Made by a program: the position numbers and the translations under genes. A DNA stretch of 64,000 nt from a virus (taxonomy: Duplodnaviria > Caudoviricetes), in the IMG/VR virus record IMGVR_UViG_2806310684_000002, positions 3,827 to 67,826 of that record. One strand, given 5' to 3'. The notes under the pieces were generated by a model. That model had not been told where the DNA came from, ran no database searches, and worked only from the letters and a program-made list of their open reading frames with translations. Below, one piece after another: positions 3,576-43,655 of the stretch (positions are counted from its first letter, which is position 1; each line of letters starts with the position of its first letter).

Positions 3576-4628
3576 ATGAATCAATTAGTTTTCAACGAGA
3601 ATGGACAGGCCGTAACGGATAGCTTAACTATTGCGGAAGTATTTGGGAAAGAACACAAAAACATACTTAGAGATATAAGAGATTTAGAAATGAAGAGTAC
3701 ATCAGATTTTTTCATTAAAAACTTTAGAGAAGATTATTACATTAGTTATAGGAACAAAAAGTATCCAAAATTCGTATTAACTGAAGACGGATTGACATTT
3801 TTGACGCTTGGTTATAACAAAGAAAAATACATTGAAATTAAGGAAAATTATATCAAGACTTTGAAGAGGTCAATCTCGGAAAATGAGATAAGGACTAATA
3901 TTGAAAAAAACGTTGAGCATATTAAAAGTGCTGAGGATATTTCTATAAAAGAGTATAAGAATCAAAGAGTAGTAACTTTCAAGGATGTCGATGAAGTTCA
4001 CAGAAGGCCTTATGGAACAGCTAGTAGAAACTTCAAACAAAATAAAAAACACTTTATTGAAGGAAAGCACTTTTACAAAATAACTCGAGACGAAATTCGT
4101 CCAGAGTTCGGATTTGGAATAAATGCGCCTAATGGGATATTAATCACAGAATTCGGTTATCTCAAATTAGTGAAATCATTTACCGACGACCTGTCTTGGG
4201 AAGTTCAAGAAAAAATAGTTGAAGTCTATTTTAGAGAAAATCAAAAACAATTAGAACAAATAGTTAGTCTACCAACAAATTTCGCTGAAGCCCTACGTTT
4301 AGCGGCGGATCTCGAAGAAGAAAATGAGCGAAATAGACCTAAAGTTGAAGCTCACGACAAGTTCATCAGTGGGGAGAATTATCAGAAGGTTGGACAGGTT
4401 GCGAAGGTTTTGAATATCGGGAGGAACAAACTGTTTGTCTTCCTAAGAGAGAACAAAATATTAATGAGTGACAATACGCCTTACCAGCAATACATTGATC
4501 GTGGATATTTCGTAGTTAAAGAGAAACCTATAGAGATGGGCTCACAGGTAATAAATAAACCACAAACCTATGTAACAGCTAAGGGTGTTGATTATATATC
4601 TAAGCTTTTGGACAAAAAAATAGCCTGA
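3576..4628 (+). CDS. Phage antirepressor (Rha + ORF6N + KilA-C domains)
   Basis: TDSLTIAEVFGKEHKNILRDI (Rha); EYKNQRVVTFKDVDEVH (ORF6N); IGRNKLF..PYQQYIDRGYF..VTAKG (KilA-C). Confidence 0.85.
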   Translation: MNQLVFNENGQAVTDSLTIAEVFGKEHKNILRDIRDLEMKSTSDFFIKNFREDYYISYRNKKYPKFVLTEDGLTFLTLGYNKEKYIEIKENYIKTLKRSISENEIRTNIEKNVEHIKSAEDISIKEYKNQRVVTFKDVDEVHRRPYGTASRNFKQNKKHFIEGKHFYKITRDEIRPEFGFGINAPNGILITEFGYLKLVKSFTDDLSWEVQEKIVEVYFRENQKQLEQIVSLPTNFAEALRLAADLEEENERNRPKVEAHDKFISGENYQKVGQVAKVLNIGRNKLFVFLRENKILMSDNTPYQQYIDRGYFVVKEKPIEMGSQVINKPQTYVTAKGVDYISKLLDKKIA

Positions 4629-8516: not shown

Positions 8517-8998
8517 TGAATCGCACAGTTTTAGTCGGAAGACTTACAAAAGATCCGGAATTACGCTATACACCAAATGGAGTACCAGTGGCTACTTTTA
8601 CATTAGCTGTTAATCGTCCATTCAAAAATGCAGCCGGGGAACAAGAAGCTGATTTCATAAACGTGGTTGTGTGGAGAAAGCCGGCAGAGAACGCAGCCAA
8701 CTATCTAAAGAAGGGCTCACTTGCTGGAGTAGATGGACGAGTTCAAACACGTAATTATGAGGGGCAAGACGGGAAAAGAATTTACGTGACGGAAGTTCTA
8801 GCTGAATCAGTACAGTTTTTAGAGCCTAGGAGCCAGAATACAGGCGGTAACAGCCAAGGTAATACAAATACATCCAGTAGTAACCAAAACCGCACACAGA
8901 GCAATTACACAAGGGTTGATGATGATCCATTTTCAGGTAGTGGCTCGATATCAATTAACGACGATGATCTTCCCTTCGCACCATGGACGGAGGCGTAA
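8513..8998 (+). CDS. ssb: Single-stranded DNA-binding protein
   Basis: [24 protein letters not shown]. Confidence 0.97.
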
Positions 8999-9000
8999 AT

Positions 9001-9780
9001 ATGAAATGGACAGACGAATCCATAACAATAGCTGTTTTTGAATTAAAGGACAAACTCGGAGTAGCTCGTATGCCAAGTAGTACAGAAATGAGAAATAATA
9101 AACAAACCGGATTAATGAGAGCCATTACTGTATCAGGTGGGATGGCACGTTGGTCTAATATTCTAGGTCTACCGATGAAAGAAAAAGAAAAGTTTTGGAC
9201 GGATGAACGGATCGAAAAAGAAATAAGAAAAGCCATGGAATTGTTTGTGATAAATAGGATGCCTACAGCTAGTGAACTGACATCTATAGGCAGAAACGAT
9301 TTGCACTGCGCTTTGAGTAAATCAGAATTGAAATACTCAGGTTGGGCTAAAAAACTTGGATTGGAAATGAAATATTCCGAAACGGTCAAAGGGAACAAGT
9401 ACGAATTAATGATTAAAAATAGAATTGAGCAAATTTCAAATGATTTATTCGTTAAAGAAATGACCACAAGACATCCATATGACTTATTAATCAATGATTG
9501 TGTAAAGGTTGATGTAAAGGTAGCCTCACCTTACTTACTTAGAGGCGAAAGTATAGTTCACACATTTGGTATAAACAAAAAGTATGGAACTTGTGACATT
9601 TATATCTGTATAGCGCTGGATGAAAACGAAGAGATTGAAAGAACCTTTATTATCCCAGCATCACACTTACAGATCGTTACATTGTGTGTAGGTAAAGATA
9701 GTAAGTACAACAAGTACTTAGACAACTGGAATTTCCTTTATCAGTTTGTTCGTCAATATGAAAGGGCCATAAGCATATGA
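9001..9780 (+). CDS. Putative homing-type nuclease (two WTDE.I repeats plus a PD-(D/E)XK domain)
   Basis: KWTDESI..RMPSSTEM and FWTDERI..RMPTASEL repeats; PYDLLINDCVKVDVK. Confidence 0.65.
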   Translation: MKWTDESITIAVFELKDKLGVARMPSSTEMRNNKQTGLMRAITVSGGMARWSNILGLPMKEKEKFWTDERIEKEIRKAMELFVINRMPTASELTSIGRNDLHCALSKSELKYSGWAKKLGLEMKYSETVKGNKYELMIKNRIEQISNDLFVKEMTTRHPYDLLINDCVKVDVKVASPYLLRGESIVHTFGINKKYGTCDIYICIALDENEEIERTFIIPASHLQIVTLCVGKDSKYNKYLDNWNFLYQFVRQYERAISI

Positions 9781-10400
9781 AAATACACTTGGCTACTGAT
9801 ACACAATTAGAAGAAATCACTAAACATGATCATGACTGCCCTCCCTCTCTTTTGGGAGAGGTAGTTGAGGAGATGTTAAATAGAAATCTATTCGACAGGA
9901 TGATTACTCATTGTTGCAAAATGGTGTTCGGAAGTTTTAACCGAATGAAGGAATTACACAGCATGGAGTTAGAAGATTTTTTACAGATAGGGCGCACAGC
10001 TGTATTTAAGGCGGTCAAGATGTTCGAACCCGGGAAAGGGAAATCATTTTCTAGTTTTGTTCACATGTTTATTAAACAAAGAATTGTTGAGTGTATCAAG
10101 TTCTTGGAAAGAGATAGGCGAGATCAGCGTAATGAATTCAGGGATATTGAGACAGAGGATGGCTTAAATATGTTTTATTTCATGCCAAGCCAGACAAATG
10201 TCGAGAAGTTCGTCATTAACAAAATCATGATAGAGGATTTCCTGAATCAATTGACCGAACGGCAAAGGCAAGTGATGGAGTTATATCTTAAGGACCACAA
10301 CTTCGAGGAAATCGCAGAAATGTTAGGGAGAAAAGGCAAAGGGCGATCTTTAAATAAGACCTATAACGATGCAATGAAAAAATTGAGAAAAGGGGCGTAA
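9777..10400 (+). CDS. Phage sigma-70 family sigma factor
   Basis: EDFLQIG..FKAVKMFEPGKGKSFSSF (region 2); LTERQRQV..EEIAEMLG (region 4). Confidence 0.85.
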   Translation: MKIHLATDTQLEEITKHDHDCPPSLLGEVVEEMLNRNLFDRMITHCCKMVFGSFNRMKELHSMELEDFLQIGRTAVFKAVKMFEPGKGKSFSSFVHMFIKQRIVECIKFLERDRRDQRNEFRDIETEDGLNMFYFMPSQTNVEKFVINKIMIEDFLNQLTERQRQVMELYLKDHNFEEIAEMLGRKGKGRSLNKTYNDAMKKLRKGA

Positions 10401-10402
10401 GT

Positions 10403-10729
10403 ATGAATTTTAATGAATACCAACAATTATCTAAAAGGACAATGCCAGGGACACATGATGGGAAAGCATTAGCAAATTATGCATTAGGTCTTACGGGGGA
10501 AGCCGGGGAGTGTGCGGACATCATCAAGAAAGAAGTATTCCATGGCCACAGAAGGGATGCTCAAGCGATTAAAAAGGAACTGGGTGACGTATTACATTAT
10601 TTGACTGGTTTAGCCACCATGTACGGATACACGCTGGAAGAAGTAGCGAATGCAAATATTGAAAAGCTGATGAAGCGTTATCCAAGTGGTTTTTCAAAAG
10701 AGGCAAGCATCAAGAGGATTGATGTATGA
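10403..10729 (+). CDS. MazG-like nucleotide pyrophosphohydrolase
   Basis: LGLTGEAGECADIIKK..ELGDVLHYL..NIEKLMKRYP. Confidence 0.92.
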   Translation: MNFNEYQQLSKRTMPGTHDGKALANYALGLTGEAGECADIIKKEVFHGHRRDAQAIKKELGDVLHYLTGLATMYGYTLEEVANANIEKLMKRYPSGFSKEASIKRIDV

Positions 10730-10872
10730 GTGATCAAGAACGTGCAACCATGATTGAATGGTTAGCCATGACAGGATATAGCAAACAGTATTACGAAAAA
10801 ATGAGTGATAAAGAATTAGAGTTTTATTACCGTGAAATGCTGGAGGAAAACAATGGGGAAAATCAACAGTAA
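10726..10872 (+). CDS. BH0509-like small protein
   Basis: ERATMIEWL..YYEKMSDKELEFYY. Confidence 0.6.
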   Translation: MSDQERATMIEWLAMTGYSKQYYEKMSDKELEFYYREMLEENNGENQQ

Positions 10873-11284
10873 GAAAACAATCGTGGGCGGCATCGTATTT
10901 GACAGCCAAACAGAAGGACAATACTATCAGTACCTTACCAATGATCCTAATGTGAAACATATAGAGTTACAGCCTAAATACACCTTGTTAGAAGCTTTCA
11001 AGATAAGCTGCAGCAAATGCATCGGGGAGGGCAAAACGCCTTCTCCAAAGACTAACAGGATGATTAAATGCAGGACATGTGAAGGGACAGGCAAGAAAAG
11101 CCGGCAACCCTGGACCTATAAAGCTGATTTTAAAGTAACCTACATGAATGGTAATGAGGAAGTAATCGATGTGAAAGGCTTTGCTAACGAACGATTTCCA
11201 CTGGTTAAGAAGATGTGGGAAAGAAAATACGGACAAGAGCTGATCGTGGTGAAGAAAGTAAAAGGTGGATGGAAAAGAGGTTGA
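10853..11284 (+). CDS. DUF1064 family nuclease with an inserted CxxCxGxG zinc finger
   Basis: FDSQTE..LQPKYTL..YKADF..IDVKG; CSKCIGEG and CRTCEGTG. Confidence 0.8.
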   Translation: MGKINSKKTIVGGIVFDSQTEGQYYQYLTNDPNVKHIELQPKYTLLEAFKISCSKCIGEGKTPSPKTNRMIKCRTCEGTGKKSRQPWTYKADFKVTYMNGNEEVIDVKGFANERFPLVKKMWERKYGQELIVVKKVKGGWKRG

Positions 11285-11286
11285 GC

Positions 11287-11622
11287 GTGAAAACAATTGA
11301 GATGTCAGAAGTCGTTCAAGAAATGATGAACGTAAAAACCCGTATGGATGGATCAATTAAAGAAGCATACAAACAAGCAAAAGTTAAGGATGCAGCTGAA
11401 CGAGAATATAGAAAGCAGTTAGCGAAAGAGATACTGAAGCTAAAATCAGAAGGGTATCAAGCCACATTGATTGGAGACATCGCAAGGGGGAATTGTGCAG
11501 ACTTGAAATTCGAAAGAGATATAGCTAAAACACTTTACGATTGTGCAAAGGATTCAAAGGATGTATTGAAAGCTGAAGCAAGTATGCTGCAAACGATAGC
11601 GAAATTCCAAACTGATTTATAG
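11287..11622 (+). CDS. Conserved phage coiled-coil protein
   Basis: AEREYRKQLAKEILKLK..ATLIGDIARG. Confidence 0.7.
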   Translation: MKTIEMSEVVQEMMNVKTRMDGSIKEAYKQAKVKDAAEREYRKQLAKEILKLKSEGYQATLIGDIARGNCADLKFERDIAKTLYDCAKDSKDVLKAEASMLQTIAKFQTDL

Positions 11623-11642
11623 GGTGCGTATCAATACGAGCT

Positions 11643-11737
11643 AAATAAAAAACCCCTAGGTGAGATATTTCAGTTCCTGGTAGACCGTCACCTAAGGGTT
11701 AATGCGAGCAGGCGTATACCTGACTAACCACAGTATA
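11643..11737 (-). ncRNA. Putative stand-alone small RNA cassette
   Basis: Minus-strand TATACT -10; hairpin CAGG-TATACG-CCTG; stem ACCCTTAGGTGA..TCACCTAGGGGT followed by T6. Confidence 0.55.
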
Positions 11738-11799
11738 AAATGAATTTTTTTATAAATAAAGAGTTAACGAGTGAAACGGTTAAGTGAAGATATGGTGTT

Positions 11800-11821
11800 A
11801 CTGAGTGGGCAAAAACTGTTC
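11800..11821. repeat. Cassette-boundary site (ACTGAGT-GGGCAAAA-ACTGTTC)
   Basis: AGT-N8-ACTGT just upstream of the RBS of the next small gene. Confidence 0.65.
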
Positions 11822-11840
11822 ATTAAAAAGGGGTGGTTGA

Positions 11841-12002
11841 GTGAAGCAAACAAACGACATAGTGGATTTATGGATGAAGTTTTGTGAAGCAAACAATGCA
11901 ACATTTATCGAAGGAGGACAAGGGATATACACCTTTAGAGATAAGGTAGGTAGAAAATGGTGGTACTTGTCGGAAAAACAGTTGAGAGAACTTTTTGATT
12001 AA
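11841..12002 (+). CDS. Small accessory protein (53 aa)
   Basis: RBS GGGGTG, GTG start, MKQTNDIVDLW...RELFD. Confidence 0.6.
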   Translation: MKQTNDIVDLWMKFCEANNATFIEGGQGIYTFRDKVGRKWWYLSEKQLRELFD

Positions 12003-32476: not shown

Positions 32477-32541
32477 GCGAGGTTTTCAAGTCATCCTGTT
32501 ATGGAGGCTTTTTTATTTTGTCTAAAAAAAGGAGTGAAAAC

Positions 32542-34902
32542 ATGAAGGATGTAAATGTTAATTTCCCGCCAACTGCTTCACCGAGTAGATCGGTAACTGC
32601 TGGTGATGTTGAATCACTGGTAACGCAAGTTAAGGCAGATGTCGAAGGCCAACTTAGTGCAGTTTCGGAACAATTGACTGGTGCGGTTAAAAAAGTTAAT
32701 GGAGTTGCACCTGTAAACGGTAATGTATCTATTCCTATTCCAGAAGTGGATACAAGTAAATTGGCAACAAAAACTGAACTAGGTGATATAGCAACAATCC
32801 CTCAGGCAAACGTGGTGGCTGCCTTGAAGGATAAAGACGATAAAATCGCTGGAGTTACCGCACAGTTGGCCGATACTGCGACAAAAACAGAACTGTCTAC
32901 ATCTGTTGCTCCTAAAGCTGATAAAACTTACGTAGATACCGAGGTAGGAAAGAAATTAGACAAAACAGGTACTATTGCAATTAATCAAATTGATAAAAAC
33001 AAAGGATTGATAGATGAAACGTATTTATCCGATACCTTAAAAGCGCAGATGGCAGGTACAACAGCAATTGGTCCAACTCCACCCAATAGAAGTATCACTC
33101 TTGCAAAGACTACATTCGCTAAGACAGGGAAAAACTTATTCAATAAAAATAAAGTTACCCCAGGATCTAGAGTTTCTAATACAACGGGCGAACTTGTTGC
33201 TGATGCTGCATTCGATTCGAGTGAACATATCCCAATATCCCCCAATACACAGTATGTAAAAGTAGGGGGTTACGCTTATGCGACATATACTTCAAATGGT
33301 GTTTTTATAAGTGGTGGATTGACTACCTCGTTTACAACTCCTGCCAATGCAGCAACAGTAAGATTTTCTACAACGCCAGCACTAGCGAATACTCAACAAC
33401 TAGAATTAGGCACTGTACCCACAGCCTACGAAGCGTTTAAAGAAATGATTGAATCGAAGTATGTTGAGAAAACGCCAATAATGCTCTCGGATATACCACC
33501 ATTGTCAGTAGGATCTCTTTCTTTTAGTAAATCAGGTAGCAATCTATTTAATAAAGATGATGTTGTTGCTAATAGTTATATTAGTGGAACAACAGGTGCA
33601 GTAACGGCTACTTCTGGATTTACTGCAGGTGGTTTTTTACCAATTTCACCAAATACATCATATATTATTAAGGTGCTTCGGCATATCGCTTATTATGATA
33701 CGAATAAAACGTATATAAGTGGGGTATCAGGATCGCCTATATCAAATTATCAAGCAACAACTCCTGCAAATGCTGCTTATATGCGTTTTAGTTGGTATAC
33801 CGGTGATGGCGCAACTGTTGATACTCAACAAGTGAATAAGGGAACTGAATTATTACCCTATGAGAATTTTGGGTTAAAGATAGCAAAGGAATATCTAGAA
33901 TTACCTGGTCTTTCAGGTGAACCAGACCGCAAATCGATTTTACCTCCAAATATTTACGGAGTTGTAGGGAAGGAAGTTAATATTTATTTTCAAAACACTT
34001 TAACAGTTCCGCAAAACGATGTACAAATAGATGTTACGTGTTCAGTAGGTAGACAAGATGAACGTAAGTGGACTTGTACGCCTACTATAGCTGGAACATA
34101 TCCCTTAACAATCACTGTATACCGAAACTTTAACCTGGTTAAGCAAGTAACAACTAACTTCATCGTAAAGGCTGCTACAGTTGGTGCAGGGAATAAAAAA
34201 GTACTTATTATCGGTGACAGTACTGTTAATGATGGAAGAATGACACAACGGCTATTAGATTTAACAGCAAGTGACCCTATGAAAGTTTCATTACTAGGCA
34301 CCAGAGGGGCAACTTCTAATAAACATGAGGGGCGCGGTGGATGGACAGCCGCACAGTATAGGACGGGTGATTTGTATCTGGGGGTGGCTAACCCATTCTA
34401 TAATTCTGCAGTTAGTGACTTTGATTTTAGTTACTACATGACGAACCAAGGATATGCTTCTTTAGATTATGTGGGAATTTGTTTAGGTATTAACGATACT
34501 TTTACGTACAATAATGATACTGATCTTCTAAATGCAATCCCAACAATTTTGGGTCATTTTGATGCAATGATTAACAAAATTAAAGTATATAGCTCTACAA
34601 TTAAAGTGGGGATATTCGTCACGATACCACCAAATGAAAATCAAGATTCTTTTGGGTTGGCATACGGAAATGGTCAAACGCAATGGAGATATAAACGTAA
34701 TAATGCATTGTGGATTGATGAAGTAATCAAGTACTTCAAAGGTAAAGAAGCGCAAGGAATTTATCTTATTCCTGATAATACTAATATTGATGCCAAAAAT
34801 GGCTTTGACATTGACGCTAATGGCGGTGTGCATCCTAATGCCACGGGTTATAATCAACGTGGTGATACTTTGTATTACTGGCTTAAATCGTTTGAATCTT
34901 AA
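32542..34902 (+). CDS. Receptor-binding / tail spike protein with carbohydrate-binding-like repeats and an SGNH hydrolase domain
   Basis: Two (K/S)NLFNK...TTPANAA modules; IIGDS, EGRGGW, LGIND and GGVHPN SGNH blocks. Confidence 0.85.
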   Translation: MKDVNVNFPPTASPSRSVTAGDVESLVTQVKADVEGQLSAVSEQLTGAVKKVNGVAPVNGNVSIPIPEVDTSKLATKTELGDIATIPQANVVAALKDKDDKIAGVTAQLADTATKTELSTSVAPKADKTYVDTEVGKKLDKTGTIAINQIDKNKGLIDETYLSDTLKAQMAGTTAIGPTPPNRSITLAKTTFAKTGKNLFNKNKVTPGSRVSNTTGELVADAAFDSSEHIPISPNTQYVKVGGYAYATYTSNGVFISGGLTTSFTTPANAATVRFSTTPALANTQQLELGTVPTAYEAFKEMIESKYVEKTPIMLSDIPPLSVGSLSFSKSGSNLFNKDDVVANSYISGTTGAVTATSGFTAGGFLPISPNTSYIIKVLRHIAYYDTNKTYISGVSGSPISNYQATTPANAAYMRFSWYTGDGATVDTQQVNKGTELLPYENFGLKIAKEYLELPGLSGEPDRKSILPPNIYGVVGKEVNIYFQNTLTVPQNDVQIDVTCSVGRQDERKWTCTPTIAGTYPLTITVYRNFNLVKQVTTNFIVKAATVGAGNKKVLIIGDSTVNDGRMTQRLLDLTASDPMKVSLLGTRGATSNKHEGRGGWTAAQYRTGDLYLGVANPFYNSAVSDFDFSYYMTNQGYASLDYVGICLGINDTFTYNNDTDLLNAIPTILGHFDAMINKIKVYSSTIKVGIFVTIPPNENQDSFGLAYGNGQTQWRYKRNNALWIDEVIKYFKGKEAQGIYLIPDNTNIDAKNGFDIDANGGVHPNATGYNQRGDTLYYWLKSFES
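32860..32881. repeat. In-frame cassette-boundary site (GCACAGT-TGGCCGAT-ACTGCGA; encodes AQLADTA)
   Basis: Left arm identical to the site at 2374; same 8-bp spacer geometry. Confidence 0.7.
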
Positions 34903-34903
34903 T

Positions 34904-34925
34904 AATTAGTAGGAACAAACTGTGC
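34904..34925. repeat. Cassette-boundary site (AATTAGT-AGGAACAA-ACTGTGC)
   Basis: 1 bp after the stop codon of the RBP gene. Confidence 0.75.
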
Positions 34926-35014
34926 GGTAACAAAATACTCTGAAGGTTAAAAATTTTTGATATCAGATATTAATGTATCAGTTATAATGATGGTAAACCA
35001 TTGGAGGTGTTTAG

Positions 35015-35251
35015 GTGATTGAAGTATTTGTAGATCATTCTTATGAAGATGATTACCATTGTATATCTCAAATAAATGTTAATTTAGCAGAAGACGAAAA
35101 CAAAAGGATTAATAAAATATTGTCCGAAAATAACGATTTTGGCGGTGCTATTTTTAACTCAGGTTTAGATGTAGAGTTATTTTTAAGCAATGCCCTAAAC
35201 GTTGACCAAAATTGCATCAACATTGAGATCTTAGAAATTGATCTATTATAG
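35015..35251 (+). CDS. Moron: small acidic protein
   Basis: Own TATAAT, RBS GGAGGTG and downstream terminator; AT-rich. Confidence 0.7.
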   Translation: MIEVFVDHSYEDDYHCISQINVNLAEDENKRINKILSENNDFGGAIFNSGLDVELFLSNALNVDQNCINIEILEIDLL

Positions 35252-35338
35252 TGAACAGCATATTTAAGTCGTCCCAAAGGGCGGCTTTTTTTTATGGATA
35301 AACATTATAGACAGAGATAAATAATTTCAAAGGGGGCC

Positions 35339-40170: not shown

Positions 40171-40416
40171 GTGTGGATGATGGATTTTGAAATACACCAT
40201 ATTAAAAAGAAAGCATTTAAGCCATTACAGGAGTTTTTAGCCGATTGGAGCAACGATAAAGAAGATATCGAAAATACTTTAAGCCAATACATGTACATGT
40301 GCCATGATGAAGAAAAAACCTATTACAAACACTTTGGGAATCGAGAGTACTTTAACATCTTAAATAATGGTACAACTGAGGGAGAACTAGAGGATTGGAG
40401 GAATTGGTATGATTGA
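40171..40416 (+). CDS. Hypothetical protein
   Basis: ORF track. Confidence 0.6.
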   Translation: MWMMDFEIHHIKKKAFKPLQEFLADWSNDKEDIENTLSQYMYMCHDEEKTYYKHFGNREYFNILNNGTTEGELEDWRNWYD

Positions 40417-41602
40417 ATGGTTAGCTATTCCTGCCATTGCTTTAGTGGCTGCCTTTATTCCGGGTAAGAAAATGACGGACGAAAAGAAGATTCAACAAAT
40501 ATTTGAAAACAGGAAGGTCGGTATTAATCAGAATGATAATTTCCTTTACCCCAAATTGATCCGTAAATATAACCACCACACATACACCACTTATATCTAC
40601 TCCTTGCCATTAGGCGTACCTTCAGAAGCGTTCGAATCCTTTATCCCTGTACTGAAAGATGGACTCAATAAAGATGTTGAAGTTGATTTTGATGAGGTTT
40701 TAAAAATTAATGTATTTGAACATGGCCTGCCTGAAAGCTGGAATTATGACGATTCCCTCCTTAGGTCTGCAACATGGGAGATACCTATCGGAAACAATCA
40801 TAAAGGAACTTTGTATCACGATTTCGAAAAGTATCCTCATATGCTCGTTGGAGGAGTTACACGTTTTGGCAAAACAGTCTTTATAAAAGAAGCCTTTTAT
40901 ACATTGCTCATGGATCAGTTAGAGAATGTTGAATTTTATTTCTTGGACTTGAAAGGCGGCTTGGAGTTTGGGAAATATCTTTCATTGCCACAAGTAAAGG
41001 CAGTGGCTAGTGATGTTTTTGAAGCAGCGGAAGTGTTGTCCGAAATTGTGGATGACTTAAAAAATCGTGAAAAGATGTTTCGTGCAAAGGGATTTACAAA
41101 CATTGTGGATACTCCTATTAAGAAAAGGACCTTTGTGGTAGTGGATGAGGGAGCCGAGTTATCTCCCAATATCATTGCTGGGGAGGGAAAGAAATACGCT
41201 AAATTCTGTCAGGCTGCCCTTTCTGAAATATCTCGAATAGGCGGAGGTTTAGGATTAAGACTGCTTTACTGTACGCAATACCCCACTAAAGAAGCGGTCC
41301 CGATGCAAGTAAAAATGAATATAGTTTCTTGGATTTCATTCATAGCTGCAGCGCAAATTGGCAGCATGGTTATTTTAGATGAAAAGGGAGCAGAGGATTT
41401 ACCTAGCACTCCAGGAAGAGCTATTTACAAAATTGAAAAGAAAAAAGTTGTTCAAGTTCCCTATATTGACGATAAATATATGTTCAAAAAAATGGAGGAA
41501 AGAGAACATGAAATCATTCACGCAGCAACGAATAGAAAGTCTGTTAACGACAATAGACCAGCTGAGTATGACGAAAATACGCCACCTGCAGCAAATACAT
41601 GA
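40409..41602 (+). CDS. FtsK/SpoIIIE-domain ATPase
   Basis: PHMLVGGVTRFGKT, DLKGG, VVVDE, TQYP. Confidence 0.92.
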   Translation: MIEWLAIPAIALVAAFIPGKKMTDEKKIQQIFENRKVGINQNDNFLYPKLIRKYNHHTYTTYIYSLPLGVPSEAFESFIPVLKDGLNKDVEVDFDEVLKINVFEHGLPESWNYDDSLLRSATWEIPIGNNHKGTLYHDFEKYPHMLVGGVTRFGKTVFIKEAFYTLLMDQLENVEFYFLDLKGGLEFGKYLSLPQVKAVASDVFEAAEVLSEIVDDLKNREKMFRAKGFTNIVDTPIKKRTFVVVDEGAELSPNIIAGEGKKYAKFCQAALSEISRIGGGLGLRLLYCTQYPTKEAVPMQVKMNIVSWISFIAAAQIGSMVILDEKGAEDLPSTPGRAIYKIEKKKVVQVPYIDDKYMFKKMEEREHEIIHAATNRKSVNDNRPAEYDENTPPAANT

Positions 41603-42158
41603 TCTAAAAAGTTACAGCAATGCTTGTCGAGTGATTAAACAACTTAGTCCGTATATCCATGAAACCATGTTCAATAAGGAAAAAGTAATATATCTCAATA
41701 AAGAAGGAAGGGAATTAATCGGATCTAAAAAAGAGGTGAAAAAGAATATGTTAATCGAGCATACTCTTTTGTGTAACGAGGCTTATTTATACTTTAATTG
41801 TCCGTTGGATTGGAAAACGGAGTATGTTATTGAAACAAAAGAATCAGTTCAGTCATCGTTTGGAATACAATTCAAAGGACTGGCACTAGCGGATAAGAAG
41901 AAGGTCGTCAGTGACGCCAGTTTTAGCCGTAATGGATACCTTCACTTAATTGAAGTTGATAACATTCGAGGCATGGCAGATAATAAAAGTAAAATTGAAT
42001 CCTATGCAGATGTGCTTCCGAAATTGAAGGAAAGACTAGGGTTAGTTCCAACACTTTATGTATTTACTTCAACAGAAGATAGGAAGCGTAAATTCGAAGG
42101 TTATATGAAGAAAAATAATTTAAGAGGGGAAGTAAAAACCTTTGATGAAATAAAATGA
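41508..42158 (+). CDS. Replication-relaxation family protein
   Basis: LNKEG..EHTLLCNE..SDASF..LIEVDN; paired with FtsK. Confidence 0.8.
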   Translation: MKSFTQQRIESLLTTIDQLSMTKIRHLQQIHDLKSYSNACRVIKQLSPYIHETMFNKEKVIYLNKEGRELIGSKKEVKKNMLIEHTLLCNEAYLYFNCPLDWKTEYVIETKESVQSSFGIQFKGLALADKKKVVSDASFSRNGYLHLIEVDNIRGMADNKSKIESYADVLPKLKERLGLVPTLYVFTSTEDRKRKFEGYMKKNNLRGEVKTFDEIK

Positions 42159-42206
42159 GAGGGGTGAAATATTTCACCCCTCCGTTTACCCCTCTTTCAC
42201 CCCTCT
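42159..42206. repeat. Integrase arm-type repeats (TT(C/T)ACCCCTC x3 plus one inverted copy)
   Basis: GAGGGGTGAAATATTTCACCCCTCCGTTTACCCCTCTTTCACCCCTCT, ~110 bp from the att core. Confidence 0.7.
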
Positions 42207-42313
42207 ATGATTAAAACGATTTGAAAAGGTTTGAAAAGCATCCCGAAACAAAATGGACTATATCAACAGATTAATGGAATTGGAAGGTATAAAAAAGGTA
42301 ATATTTATAGTTG

Positions 42314-42373
42314 GATATGTTCCGCACGCAAGTCCACCCATGGGAACGCGAACAATATATGTCCATGTATTAA
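42314..42373 (+). other. glnA: att junction: displaced 3' end of the glutamine synthetase gene
   Basis: Translates as DMFRTQVHPWEREQYMSMY*, matching the Bacillus GlnA C-terminus. Confidence 0.9.
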
Positions 42374-42380
42374 TAGCTTC

Positions 42381-42425
42381 AAAGCCTTGGTATTACTGAG
42401 TTTCTCAGTTGCCAAGGCTTTTTTT
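42381..42425. terminator. Terminator-like hairpin between the glnA fragment and the integrase
   Basis: AAAGCCTTGG..CCAAGGCTTTTTTT. Confidence 0.75.
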
Positions 42426-42471
42426 ATTTTTATAAATTGAAGGAGAAAGGGCTGGCTGACCACATTTCAAA

Positions 42472-43655
42472 CTATTTCATATTCAACTGCGTATAATCCA
42501 TGTAATTTGAATATCCGTCTACACTTTTTTCTTCGAGTATTTTTGACACGTGAGCATAGACATCTGCTGTTGTTTGAATGGATTTATGTCCTAAACGTTC
42601 CTGCACATCTTTTAAACTGGATCCAGATTCAAGAAGTAAAACGGCGTGGGTATGTCGTAAACCGTGGATGGTTATATGTTTAGTAATTCCTGCTTTTCTA
42701 CAGATGCGATTAAAAGCTCTGTGTAAGGTGGATTTTGAATAGGGGAGGCCATTCCCTCTTTCGAAAACAAGAGTTGTTTCTCTATGATATCTATCTGCCA
42801 ATTTCAACCTTATTTCCTTTTGCTTAATGACATGACGTGTTAACAGAGCGGCAAGGCTTTCTGCGATTAAAATTTTCTATACGATGTTTCAGTTTTAGGT
42901 GGTCCAAACATTTTATCAATATCCAATGCATCATACTTTATAGTTTTGTATACTTTAATTTTATTTTCGGTAAAGTCTAAATCGTGAAACTGGAGAGCTA
43001 AAGCTTCGCCTTTTCTTAAACCAGTATAAATCAGTGTTTTAAATAAAATAAAATAGTTCCAATCTTCTGCTTGAGCAGCATCTAAAAATCTAAATACTTC
43101 ATCTTTGCTTAGATATTCTAAATCTTCATCTTCTTTTATCTGGTTTATTGCCTTATTAGGGATTGTCACTCCAGAACAAGGGTTTTTAGATATCATTTCA
43201 AGAGAAACGGCTTTATTCATCGCATTGTAAAGAGTAGTGTGGATGATTTCTACAGTTCTTTTACTTTTTTCTTGATCAGCGAGTTTATTAATGATTTTTT
43301 GATAATGTGTTGGGGTTAAATCTTTTATCTTCATATGACCTATTAACGGAAGGAGTTTTTTTTGAACATTTCGTTCATGAAGCTTAAATGTATTTTCTTT
43401 CACTGCATTCTTTTTATAGGTGACTAACCAATCAGGTAAGTAATCTTTAAAAAGAATATCTTTGTTATAAGCCTGTCCGTTATTTATAATAATGTCTTTA
43501 AGTGCTTCCTCCACCTTAAAAGCAGCTTCTTTTTTAGTATCTGCACGTCGTGTAATTTGAGTTCTTTTACCAGTTGCGGGATTGCGAGGACCTTCTTCAG
43601 TACAATTCCATTTGTAGCCCTGTTTATTTTTAGCAGGAACTTTTTTGATATTAAG
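42472..43655 (-). pseudogene. int: Tyrosine integrase, frameshifted near 42867 and lacking a start codon
   Basis: TGLRKGEALAL; HGLRHTHA..RLGH..TTADVY; split into two ORFs. Confidence 0.9.

Follow-up and report, generated by a model that had tools for sequence, protein, structure and literature searches.

The window analysed here is a stretch of 64,000 nucleotides (nt) from a virus of the Caudoviricetes (Duplodnaviria; IMG/VR record IMGVR_UViG_2806310684_000002, positions 3,827 to 67,826), and it contains a tail-fibre, or receptor-binding, gene on the + strand at 32542-34902 (identified by its open reading frame [ORF] and translation, 786 amino acids [aa], with matches to PHROG virion and tail-fibre families). 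The part of this gene that encodes AQLADT and an element after its stop codon appear to be two inverted copies of one asymmetric site. Each copy would have a 12-nt arm that is conserved (TTACCGCACAGT) and an 8-nt spacer, with a second arm that is weak or missing, and the two together would bound an exchangeable receptor-binding cassette. By comparison with related sequences, the sites exist, are constrained at the nucleotide level, covary, coincide with a real exchange junction, and adjoin a recombinase gene in relatives. Our preferred explanation, with a probability of about 0.45, is that they are crossover sites for exchanging receptor-binding cassettes between phages. We infer that a recombinase binds and cuts the sites and that exchange would proceed by double site-specific crossover. 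The original prediction, made from the letters of the window, had read the AQLADTA peptide as the translated footprint of a DNA recombination site that allows site-specific swapping of host-range domains. The observation behind it is confirmed and is stronger than first described, and the interpretation is partly supported.

In the gene, GCACAGTTGGCCGATACTGCGA lies in frame at 32860-32881 and encodes AQLADTA (residues 107-113), in agreement with the letters, frame, and codon number (about 107) initially given. The in-gene site spans 32855-32878 on the + strand, with the conserved arm at 32855-32866, the spacer TGGCCGAT, and then ACTG, and it encodes (V)TAQLADT. The after-stop site, TAGTAGGAACAAACTGTGCGGTAAC, is at 34907-34931 on the - strand. 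Its top strand reads TAGT-AGGAACAA-ACTGTGCGGTAAC, and its conserved arm, on the bottom strand, is an inverted copy of the in-gene arm. Because the stop codon (TAA, 34900-34902) ends at 34902, the site begins 4 nt past the stop, and not 1 base pair (bp) past it at 34904 as had been stated. Between them the two sites form an inverted repeat that is perfect over 14 bp: GTTACCGCACAGTT occupies 32854-32867 (codons V-T-A-Q-L), and its complement, the second arm, occupies 34918-34931 and begins 15 nt past the stop codon. Allowing up to two mismatches, the 14-mer has three matches in the window (0.25 expected), and none of 100 shuffles reached three.

The third match to the 14-mer is part of the site at 2374, where GCACAGT, the left arm of the in-gene site, had been noted before and is present. 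At 2369-2400 there is a full 12-8-12 palindromic site of the same family (CTAACGCACAGT-ACGAATAA-ACTGTCCGGAAA), each arm of which agrees with TTACCGCACAGT in 10 of 12 positions. This site is located 4 nt past the stop of a 58-aa ORF in the early region, and the spacing from stop to first arm is equal to that at the tail-fibre gene. Unlike this palindrome, the two tail-fibre sites each have one strong arm only. The CAGT-N8-ACTG palindrome by which the sites had been defined is at chance level in the window, with two occurrences against 0.48 expected (10 of 100 shuffles reach two) and, with up to one mismatch, 13 against 15.7; GCACAGT occurs six times (3.6 expected). The 8-nt spacers of the window's two tail-fibre sites match at 3 of 8 positions. 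The spacers sort by border into two classes, those in the gene being TGGCGGAT-like and those past the stop, read on the bottom strand, xTxxTCCx-like. There are two arm alleles, CGCACAGT and TGCGCAGT.

The tail-fibre protein begins with an N-terminal anchor (residues 1-41) and a decayed junction motif, SEQLTGA (residues 42-48; 32665-32685 on the + strand, with codons GAA CAA TTG ACT GGT). These are followed by a VKKVNG...ATKTEL module, TAQLADT (residues 106-112), a linker, two tandem repeats, and an SGNH/GDSL-like domain. In alignment with L003 and L004 (related loci are designated here by L numbers), SEQLTGA takes the place of SAQLADT in the relatives. A related protein (P0002) is 88% identical to the window protein (P0001) over residues 1-119 and unrelated after AQLADT. 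A shorter anchor (MTDVNVNFPP...EGQVSVV) leads to [ST]AQLA[DE][TK], directly after which stand at least five different cassettes: a polysaccharide deacetylase, two pectate-lyase-like types, a NosD-like beta-helix, and a DUF1565 type. When residues 1-170 were searched against 1.84 billion representatives, 107 proteins matched, 21 of them beginning at residue 1, and 17 of these 21 ended at residues 46-57, that is, at the first motif. Five of the 16 anchors that were fetched carry [ST]AQLA[DE], and 11 have GQVED, GKVDG, EKLAD, and similar sequences. Since distant anchors lack the motif, the domain border is general, and the DNA site is special to a subset. The peptide had been proposed to mark the border between conserved anchor and variable C-terminus, which holds in this phage group but not in the distant anchors. 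Likewise, the expected drop in similarity at QLAD/E is seen in P0002 but not in Lactococcus P335-type relatives of L207 and bIL285, where similarity stops 15-20 residues before the motif.

Locus L003 is 95.8% identical to L064 up to the site. From the site onward it is 99.8-100% identical to L240 over 882 nt, until the L003 contig ends, and ahead of the site L003 and L240 are no more alike than random sequences (22-38%); the L240 anchor is of BppU type. These identities indicate one cassette on two unrelated anchors, with a crossover within about 28 shared nt that contain the site. Judged from them, L003 is a natural chimera whose parents switch inside the site. L239, L240, and L003 are viral records whose names have a common numeric prefix, and all three carry sites; two of them have near-identical recombinases (96% aa identity), and two share a cassette at 100% identity.

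The after-stop site is found again 8-16 nt past the stop codon of tail-fibre genes in L064/L004, L137, L139, L240, L207, L244, L249, L251, and L253. The genes concerned have unrelated C-termini and otherwise unrelated flanks, and between such loci the site stands as an island of similarity of 14-32 nt. In L004, where the cassette differs and the downstream flank is otherwise unrelated, AAACTGTGCGGTAA is nonetheless present 15-16 nt past the stop. The site is 236 nt past the stop in L143 and beyond a second gene in L138, where the site pair (8602-11855) encloses an SGNH tail fibre and a 324-aa Acyl_transf_3 membrane protein, so the exchangeable unit can carry a passenger gene. A scan of viral contigs for the 14-mer AAACTGTGCGGTAA gave at least 118 loci, mostly chance matches. 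Among the matches listed, L064, L137, and L139 have a tail-fibre ORF of more than 300 aa ending no more than 60 nt upstream, and L138 and L143 are two further tail-fibre loci. Scanning for the in-gene DNA returned 85 loci; the majority belong to an unrelated family of antirepressor-like type, and three tail-fibre loci were cut off downstream. Among the in-gene-DNA tail-fibre loci with a readable downstream region, the partner is present in L064, L143, and L207. Three Lactococcus phages without the in-gene motif are also without the partner, and L207 has both.

Other searches returned few relatives or none. No DNA match of the tail-fibre gene was found in a phage collection, the anchor was found in none of 46 other genomes of the genus, and a back-translated junction pattern was found in none of 67 genomes of the family. 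A scan of genome contigs gave one broken relative (L002), a metagenome scan found no DNA relative, and scans with the VKKVNG-module alignment and with the cassette alone found no relatives. A scan with a cassette alignment gave two distant loci, both without sites, and tblastn with short peptides returned bIL285 and its copies only. Of 401 Bacillales genomes, 33 contain a 13-mer of the site; apart from L026 and L027, the 30 loci that were read are chance matches in host genes, and a reversed control pattern gave matches of the same order. A generic search for the best inverted 13-mer match did not outperform shuffled controls and was dropped, as was one near the recombinase for exact inverted repeats of 11 nt or more.

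Codon choice at the junction was compared in loci not chosen on their in-gene DNA. The junction glutamine (Gln) codon is CAG in 14 of 14 such loci (the window, L002, L003, L004, L137, L138, L139, L143, L240, L244, L248, L249, L253, and L276), not all of which are independent, and the junction leucine (Leu) codon is TTG in 13 of 13. The background in these genes is 21% CAG among Gln codons, 22% TTG among Leu codons, and 9% ACC among threonine codons. Other Q[LVI]x motifs of the same genes mostly use CAA, as does the decayed first motif of the window. Codons after GAT/GAA at the in-gene right arm vary (ACT, ACC, ACA, AAA, GTG, and ATG-type). The predicted constraint on synonymous positions is therefore found in the left part of the site (ACC GCA CAG TTG), but not in the in-gene right arm, where ACTG varies freely. 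In 12 of 13 loci the in-gene and after-stop sites carry the same base ahead of CAGT (GCA or GCG), L248 being discordant; a Fisher test by hand gave p ~0.014, a value inflated by related, non-independent lineages.

A tyrosine recombinase gene neighbours the after-stop site in part of these loci. In L143 it encodes 350 aa and begins about 300 nt past the after-stop site. The recombinase of the related loci matches PF00589 (E 4e-38) and the Xer-family model NF040815 (222.9 bits, cut-off 220), and it is 32-34% identical to host Xer genes. It lies 217-464 nt beyond the after-stop site in eight loci and 1250 nt beyond it in L252. Forty loci with recombinase homologs were fetched. The after-stop element stands ahead of the recombinase gene in 9 of the 18 closest (at least 57% identity, or 72% and 68% for L273 and L277) and in none of 11 more distant loci checked; about 0.2 matches of the regular expression would be expected by chance. 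In these loci the element consists of the stop codon, 2-4 nt, [CT]AGT, AGGAnnAn, ACTG[TC]GC..TA, GAAAA, and a terminator. This consensus shows that the second palindrome of the original prediction is conserved after the stop, though its in-gene twin is not. Homology between the recombinase loci sets in no more than about 10 nt from the element and continues into the recombinase gene, and the cassettes to its left are unrelated.

If the sites serve cassette exchange, the enzyme would be the Xer-family tyrosine recombinase that related phages encode beside the after-stop site. Because the in-gene and after-stop sites have different spacers, they would not recombine with each other, which would invert the cassette and truncate the fibre. 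The only partner of each would be its equivalent in another phage or prophage, and two crossovers of this kind would swap the cassette. The window is without this recombinase gene, and its sites may be served in trans by another phage or may be recent relics. Inversion between the sites in silico brings a stop 0-59 codons past the junction in 7 of 7 loci and truncates the protein. Each locus has one cassette and two sites, with no alternative cassette on the other strand. Truncation by inversion, the single cassette, and the differing spacers in two border classes favour exchange between genomes. No inverted state was seen among the site-pattern loci listed (at least 118). Contigs of two probable source sequencing runs had the reference orientation only and no joints; rare forms drop out of contigs, so this check says nothing on them.

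Several findings weigh against this explanation. The recombinase of the site-linked clade is absent from the window and its genome, where the best match (34%) is to host Xer genes, and the L137 record, which is rated 100% complete, has no PF00589 match. The window's only tyrosine recombinase is split into two ORFs on the - strand (42867-43514 and 42472-42807), and it was rejected as the site enzyme because it is unrelated to the site-linked clade. The window has no PF00239 resolvase/invertase, and all six PF00239 matches of the genome are outside it. Half of the close recombinase loci (9 of 18) have no site by regular expression, although one of these, L241, has a variant by eye. The partner past the stop that had been predicted for relatives recurs in several loci but is missing in L162 and in Lactococcus phage bIL285 (L187/L189), both of which have the in-gene DNA. 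Distant anchors have the junction without the motif, so exchange at this border does not depend on the site. In L003 the exchange is documented at the left border only, as the contig ends before the right-hand border. The shared in-gene stretch of about 25-28 nt could also support short-homology recombination without a dedicated enzyme. A crossover inside the site in a natural chimera favours the original prediction, whereas no fitting recombinase lies in or near the window and no recombined or inverted form of the locus was seen.

Ordinary short-homology recombination at a conserved linker is a possible alternative, although a less probable one. Host RecA or a phage annealing protein would make the crossovers, the AQLADT codons (about 25 nt) would be kept identical because recombinants need matching sequence, and the after-stop element would be part of a terminator/recombinase module with another job (dif-like resolution or regulation), its likeness to the in-gene site being secondary. 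The L003 crossover within its 28-nt shared stretch is what such a process would give, and junctions at the same protein position in anchors without the motif, together with the early breaks in the Lactococcus relatives, point the same way. The homology of the recombinase loci, which runs as one module from the after-stop site into the recombinase gene, and the many site-bearing loci without a recombinase are also in its favour. It leaves unexplained the inverted copy of the in-gene arm after the stop, which is perfect over 14 nt in the window, the agreement of the GCA/GCG base between the two sites, and the persistence of the after-stop site as an isolated island in loci that no longer have the recombinase. 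An invertible on/off switch, in effect a shufflon of one segment, is unlikely. A tyrosine recombinase would flip the segment and cut the fibre to its anchor, which would switch the receptor-binding protein off in a fraction of the population. In layout the locus is similar to the Rin shufflon (PMC6109161), with short asymmetric inverted sites around the C-terminal part of an adhesin-type gene and an armless Xer-like recombinase adjoining in relatives. Against it are the truncation in all seven loci, the lack of a cassette on the opposite strand, the presence of just two sites per locus, the match of the window's spacers at only three of eight positions, and the lack of an inverted-looking locus among those listed.

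Less likely still is long-range RNA pairing, in which the in-gene arm would pair with the after-stop arm over 10-14 bp across 1-3 kilobases (kb) of mRNA and act on the stability, processing, or translation of the cassette part. The arms are complementary on one strand in all loci, and the after-stop arm lies in the 3' untranslated region ahead of the terminator. The in-gene A-to-G change is accompanied by an after-stop T-to-C change, as in Watson-Crick compensation, and the C-to-T change in L207 keeps a G-U pair. However, the sequence itself is kept across distant phages, beyond mere complementarity, and pairing is interrupted in L137, L139, and L248 (arm identity 9, 10, and 7 of 12). Pairing also leaves unexplained the short second arm and spacer after the stop, the 2369-2400 palindrome, and the position of the arm at an exchange junction, and no Rfam family matches around the after-stop site. 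A coincidence, with AQLADT being a coiled-coil or hinge motif that resembles the after-stop sequence by accident, is highly improbable. It would fit the chance-level frequency of the palindrome as first defined and the occurrence of the 13-mer mostly in host genes, at the same order as its reversed control. It does not fit the 14-mer count, which no shuffle reached, the recurrence of the pairing in independent loci, or the codon bias and covariation.

The Gin, Cin, and Min tail-fibre switches, known from Mu, P1, and p15B, rely on a serine recombinase and have at least two opposed cassettes; one site is inside the tail-fibre gene, at the junction of constant and variable parts, and a partner lies past the variable part. 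The window has a comparable in-gene junction site and partner but no PF00239 gene. In the R64 shufflon, the Rci tyrosine recombinase acts on sfx sites that consist of a conserved arm, a spacer, and a non-conserved second arm and that lie in frame at the junction between the constant N-terminus and variable C-termini of an adhesin. There is multiple inversion among several segments, and rci is, as far as is known, always adjacent, whereas the window has neither multi-segment inversion nor an adjoining recombinase. The nearest described system is the Rin shufflon of Bifidobacterium prophages, in which a constant N-terminal receptor-binding part is joined to variable C-terminal parts at 11-bp asymmetric rix sites and the gene for an armless XerD-like tyrosine recombinase flanks the locus (PMC6109161). 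The paper also describes several alternative C-terminal genes, observed inverted isoforms, and a simpler inverted locus without an adjoining recombinase (PMC6109161). Both systems have short asymmetric inverted repeats, one of them in frame at the constant/variable junction. Unlike Rin, the locus here has one cassette with two sites, differing spacers, a truncating inversion, and no isoforms seen, and its site sequence is unrelated to rix. Two or more alternative segments brought into frame by inversion, which define the Rin and R64 shufflons, are not found here, and a dedicated recombinase, which does not adjoin the window locus, is present in 9 of 18 related loci. Programmed inversion of tail-fibre segments has been described beyond these cases (PMC9881135).

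Xer-dependent dif modules of Acinetobacter plasmids are gene modules bounded by Xer-type sites and shuffled between replicons (PMC6449649, PMC13141974). The recombinase of our related loci is likewise of the Xer family. The dif modules differ in having 28-bp XerC/XerD sites, host Xer proteins, and positions between plasmid genes, whereas here one site is in frame inside a phage gene, arm and spacer measure 12 and 8 nt, and in some loci the phage itself encodes the recombinase. The sites that flank dif modules are inverted. Engineered recombinase-mediated cassette exchange uses heterospecific sites with shared arms and different spacers, each of which reacts only with its twin elsewhere; that is a laboratory design, and a natural counterpart in these phages is an inference. 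A full-text search of the literature, judged mostly by titles and abstract openings, found no description of this site pair.

A broader and more tentative suggestion is that temperate phages of Bacillaceae and relatives have a natural cassette-exchange system, in which one Xer-like recombinase would act on a common 12-nt arm at several borders, each border with its own spacer. The borders would be inside the tail-fibre gene, past its stop, and in the early region at 2369-2400. With an 8-nt spacer for each border, sites within one genome would never react together, and each would react with its twin in a co-resident or incoming phage. Such a system would allow precise in-frame swaps of host-range modules without the risk of deletion. 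Clean in-frame swaps of receptor-binding domains are usually ascribed to chance recombination and selection; here the junction carries a nucleotide-level signal, with a partner past the gene, covariation, and an adjoining recombinase gene in relatives. If the sites are genuine recombinase targets, the evolution of host range in these phages would be programmed in part, two short sites and one enzyme would offer a convenient experimental handle, and AQLA(D/E)T would be a protein motif shaped by DNA function. If they instead mark only places where ordinary recombination is frequent, they still serve to flag cassette borders in the annotation of prophage tail fibres.

The cassette was predicted to hold carbohydrate-binding-like repeats and an SGNH esterase domain. 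The sites do enclose two tandem repeats (about 135 aa each, residues ~184-460, 33091-33921 on the + strand; 38% identity, E 1e-23; phrog_11541 and phrog_6782) and an SGNH/GDSL-like domain (residues 554-772, 34201-34857 on the + strand; PF13472 and phrog_26878), but carbohydrate binding by the repeats is only possible. The PF13472 score of the SGNH/GDSL-like domain (29.7 bits) is under the cut-off of 32.9, and PHROG support is strong (phrog_26878, 1.7e-44). Blocks IIGDST, GINDT, and GVHPN, corresponding to the GDS, GxND, and H blocks of SGNH/GDSL proteins, can be read in the translation. Relatives score above the Pfam cut-off (P0002, 63.6 bits; L249, 64.2 bits), and this part of the protein is 34% identical to a baseplate/receptor-binding protein of Lactococcus phage 98204. 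The protein matches no solved structure by sequence. Pfam gave no BppU_N match in the window protein; the domain is present in L240, L137, and L139, which share the same sites.

The tail-fibre gene opens with the ATG at 32542 and is the final tail gene, ahead of the lysis genes. The baseplate J gene (29382) and two tail-fibre-like genes lie 5' of it, and small ORFs and then the endolysin gene (36582) lie 3' of it. The prophage resides in a two-contig genome of 5.0 megabases (Mb), the host of which is Peribacillus-like, judged from the names of the closest protein homologs. The gene has its own conserved leader, GCTTTTTTATTTTGTCTAAAA..AGGAGTGAAAA (32490-32541), common to L003 and L004, which comes after a T-run that by eye resembles the end of a terminator, and it may be a separate transcription unit. 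A terminator-like hairpin at 35266-35287 on the + strand, conserved in relatives, would close this unit. A 78-aa ORF (35015-35251, + strand), for which Pfam, PHROG, and NCBIfam-type searches matched no known family, sits where related loci have the Xer-like recombinase gene. It was rejected as a recombinase remnant because it has no similarity to the recombinase. The terminator flanking this ORF is common to L239 and L240. Farther downstream, the split tyrosine recombinase neighbours a gene with an FtsK/SpoIIIE domain (40409-41602), and the region 40409-43514 is probably the border of another mobile element that follows the prophage. The integrase of the prophage itself appears to be encoded some 3.2 kb ahead of the first position of the window.

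Sequences of related type also occur elsewhere in the genome. A solitary full-type site, CAGTTGACGCAAACTGTGCGGTAAC, lies outside the window on contig 1 (C1; 694919-694942, - strand), with a strong arm identical to the after-stop arm of the window and no adjacent tail-fibre gene. A similar site is present in L026, a genome of the same genus. A hairpin element, tcttatggaactaacGGGGCAGGatagttc, has 22 copies with up to two mismatches in the genome, all outside the window. On the 88-kb contig 2 (C2; about 33-86 kb), 15 copies are on the + strand and one is on the - strand, with spacings of 0.3-16 kb, and the other positions are on contig 1 at 694973 and 4.04-4.08 Mb. Five copies are followed 5-15 nt later by a (C)GCAGT-N8-ACTG(C/T)G-type palindrome, two of which end in ACTGTGCGGTAA. 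With placement relative to genes checked at C1:694973 and C2:35604 only, the set looks like a cassette-type array with sites of the same family.

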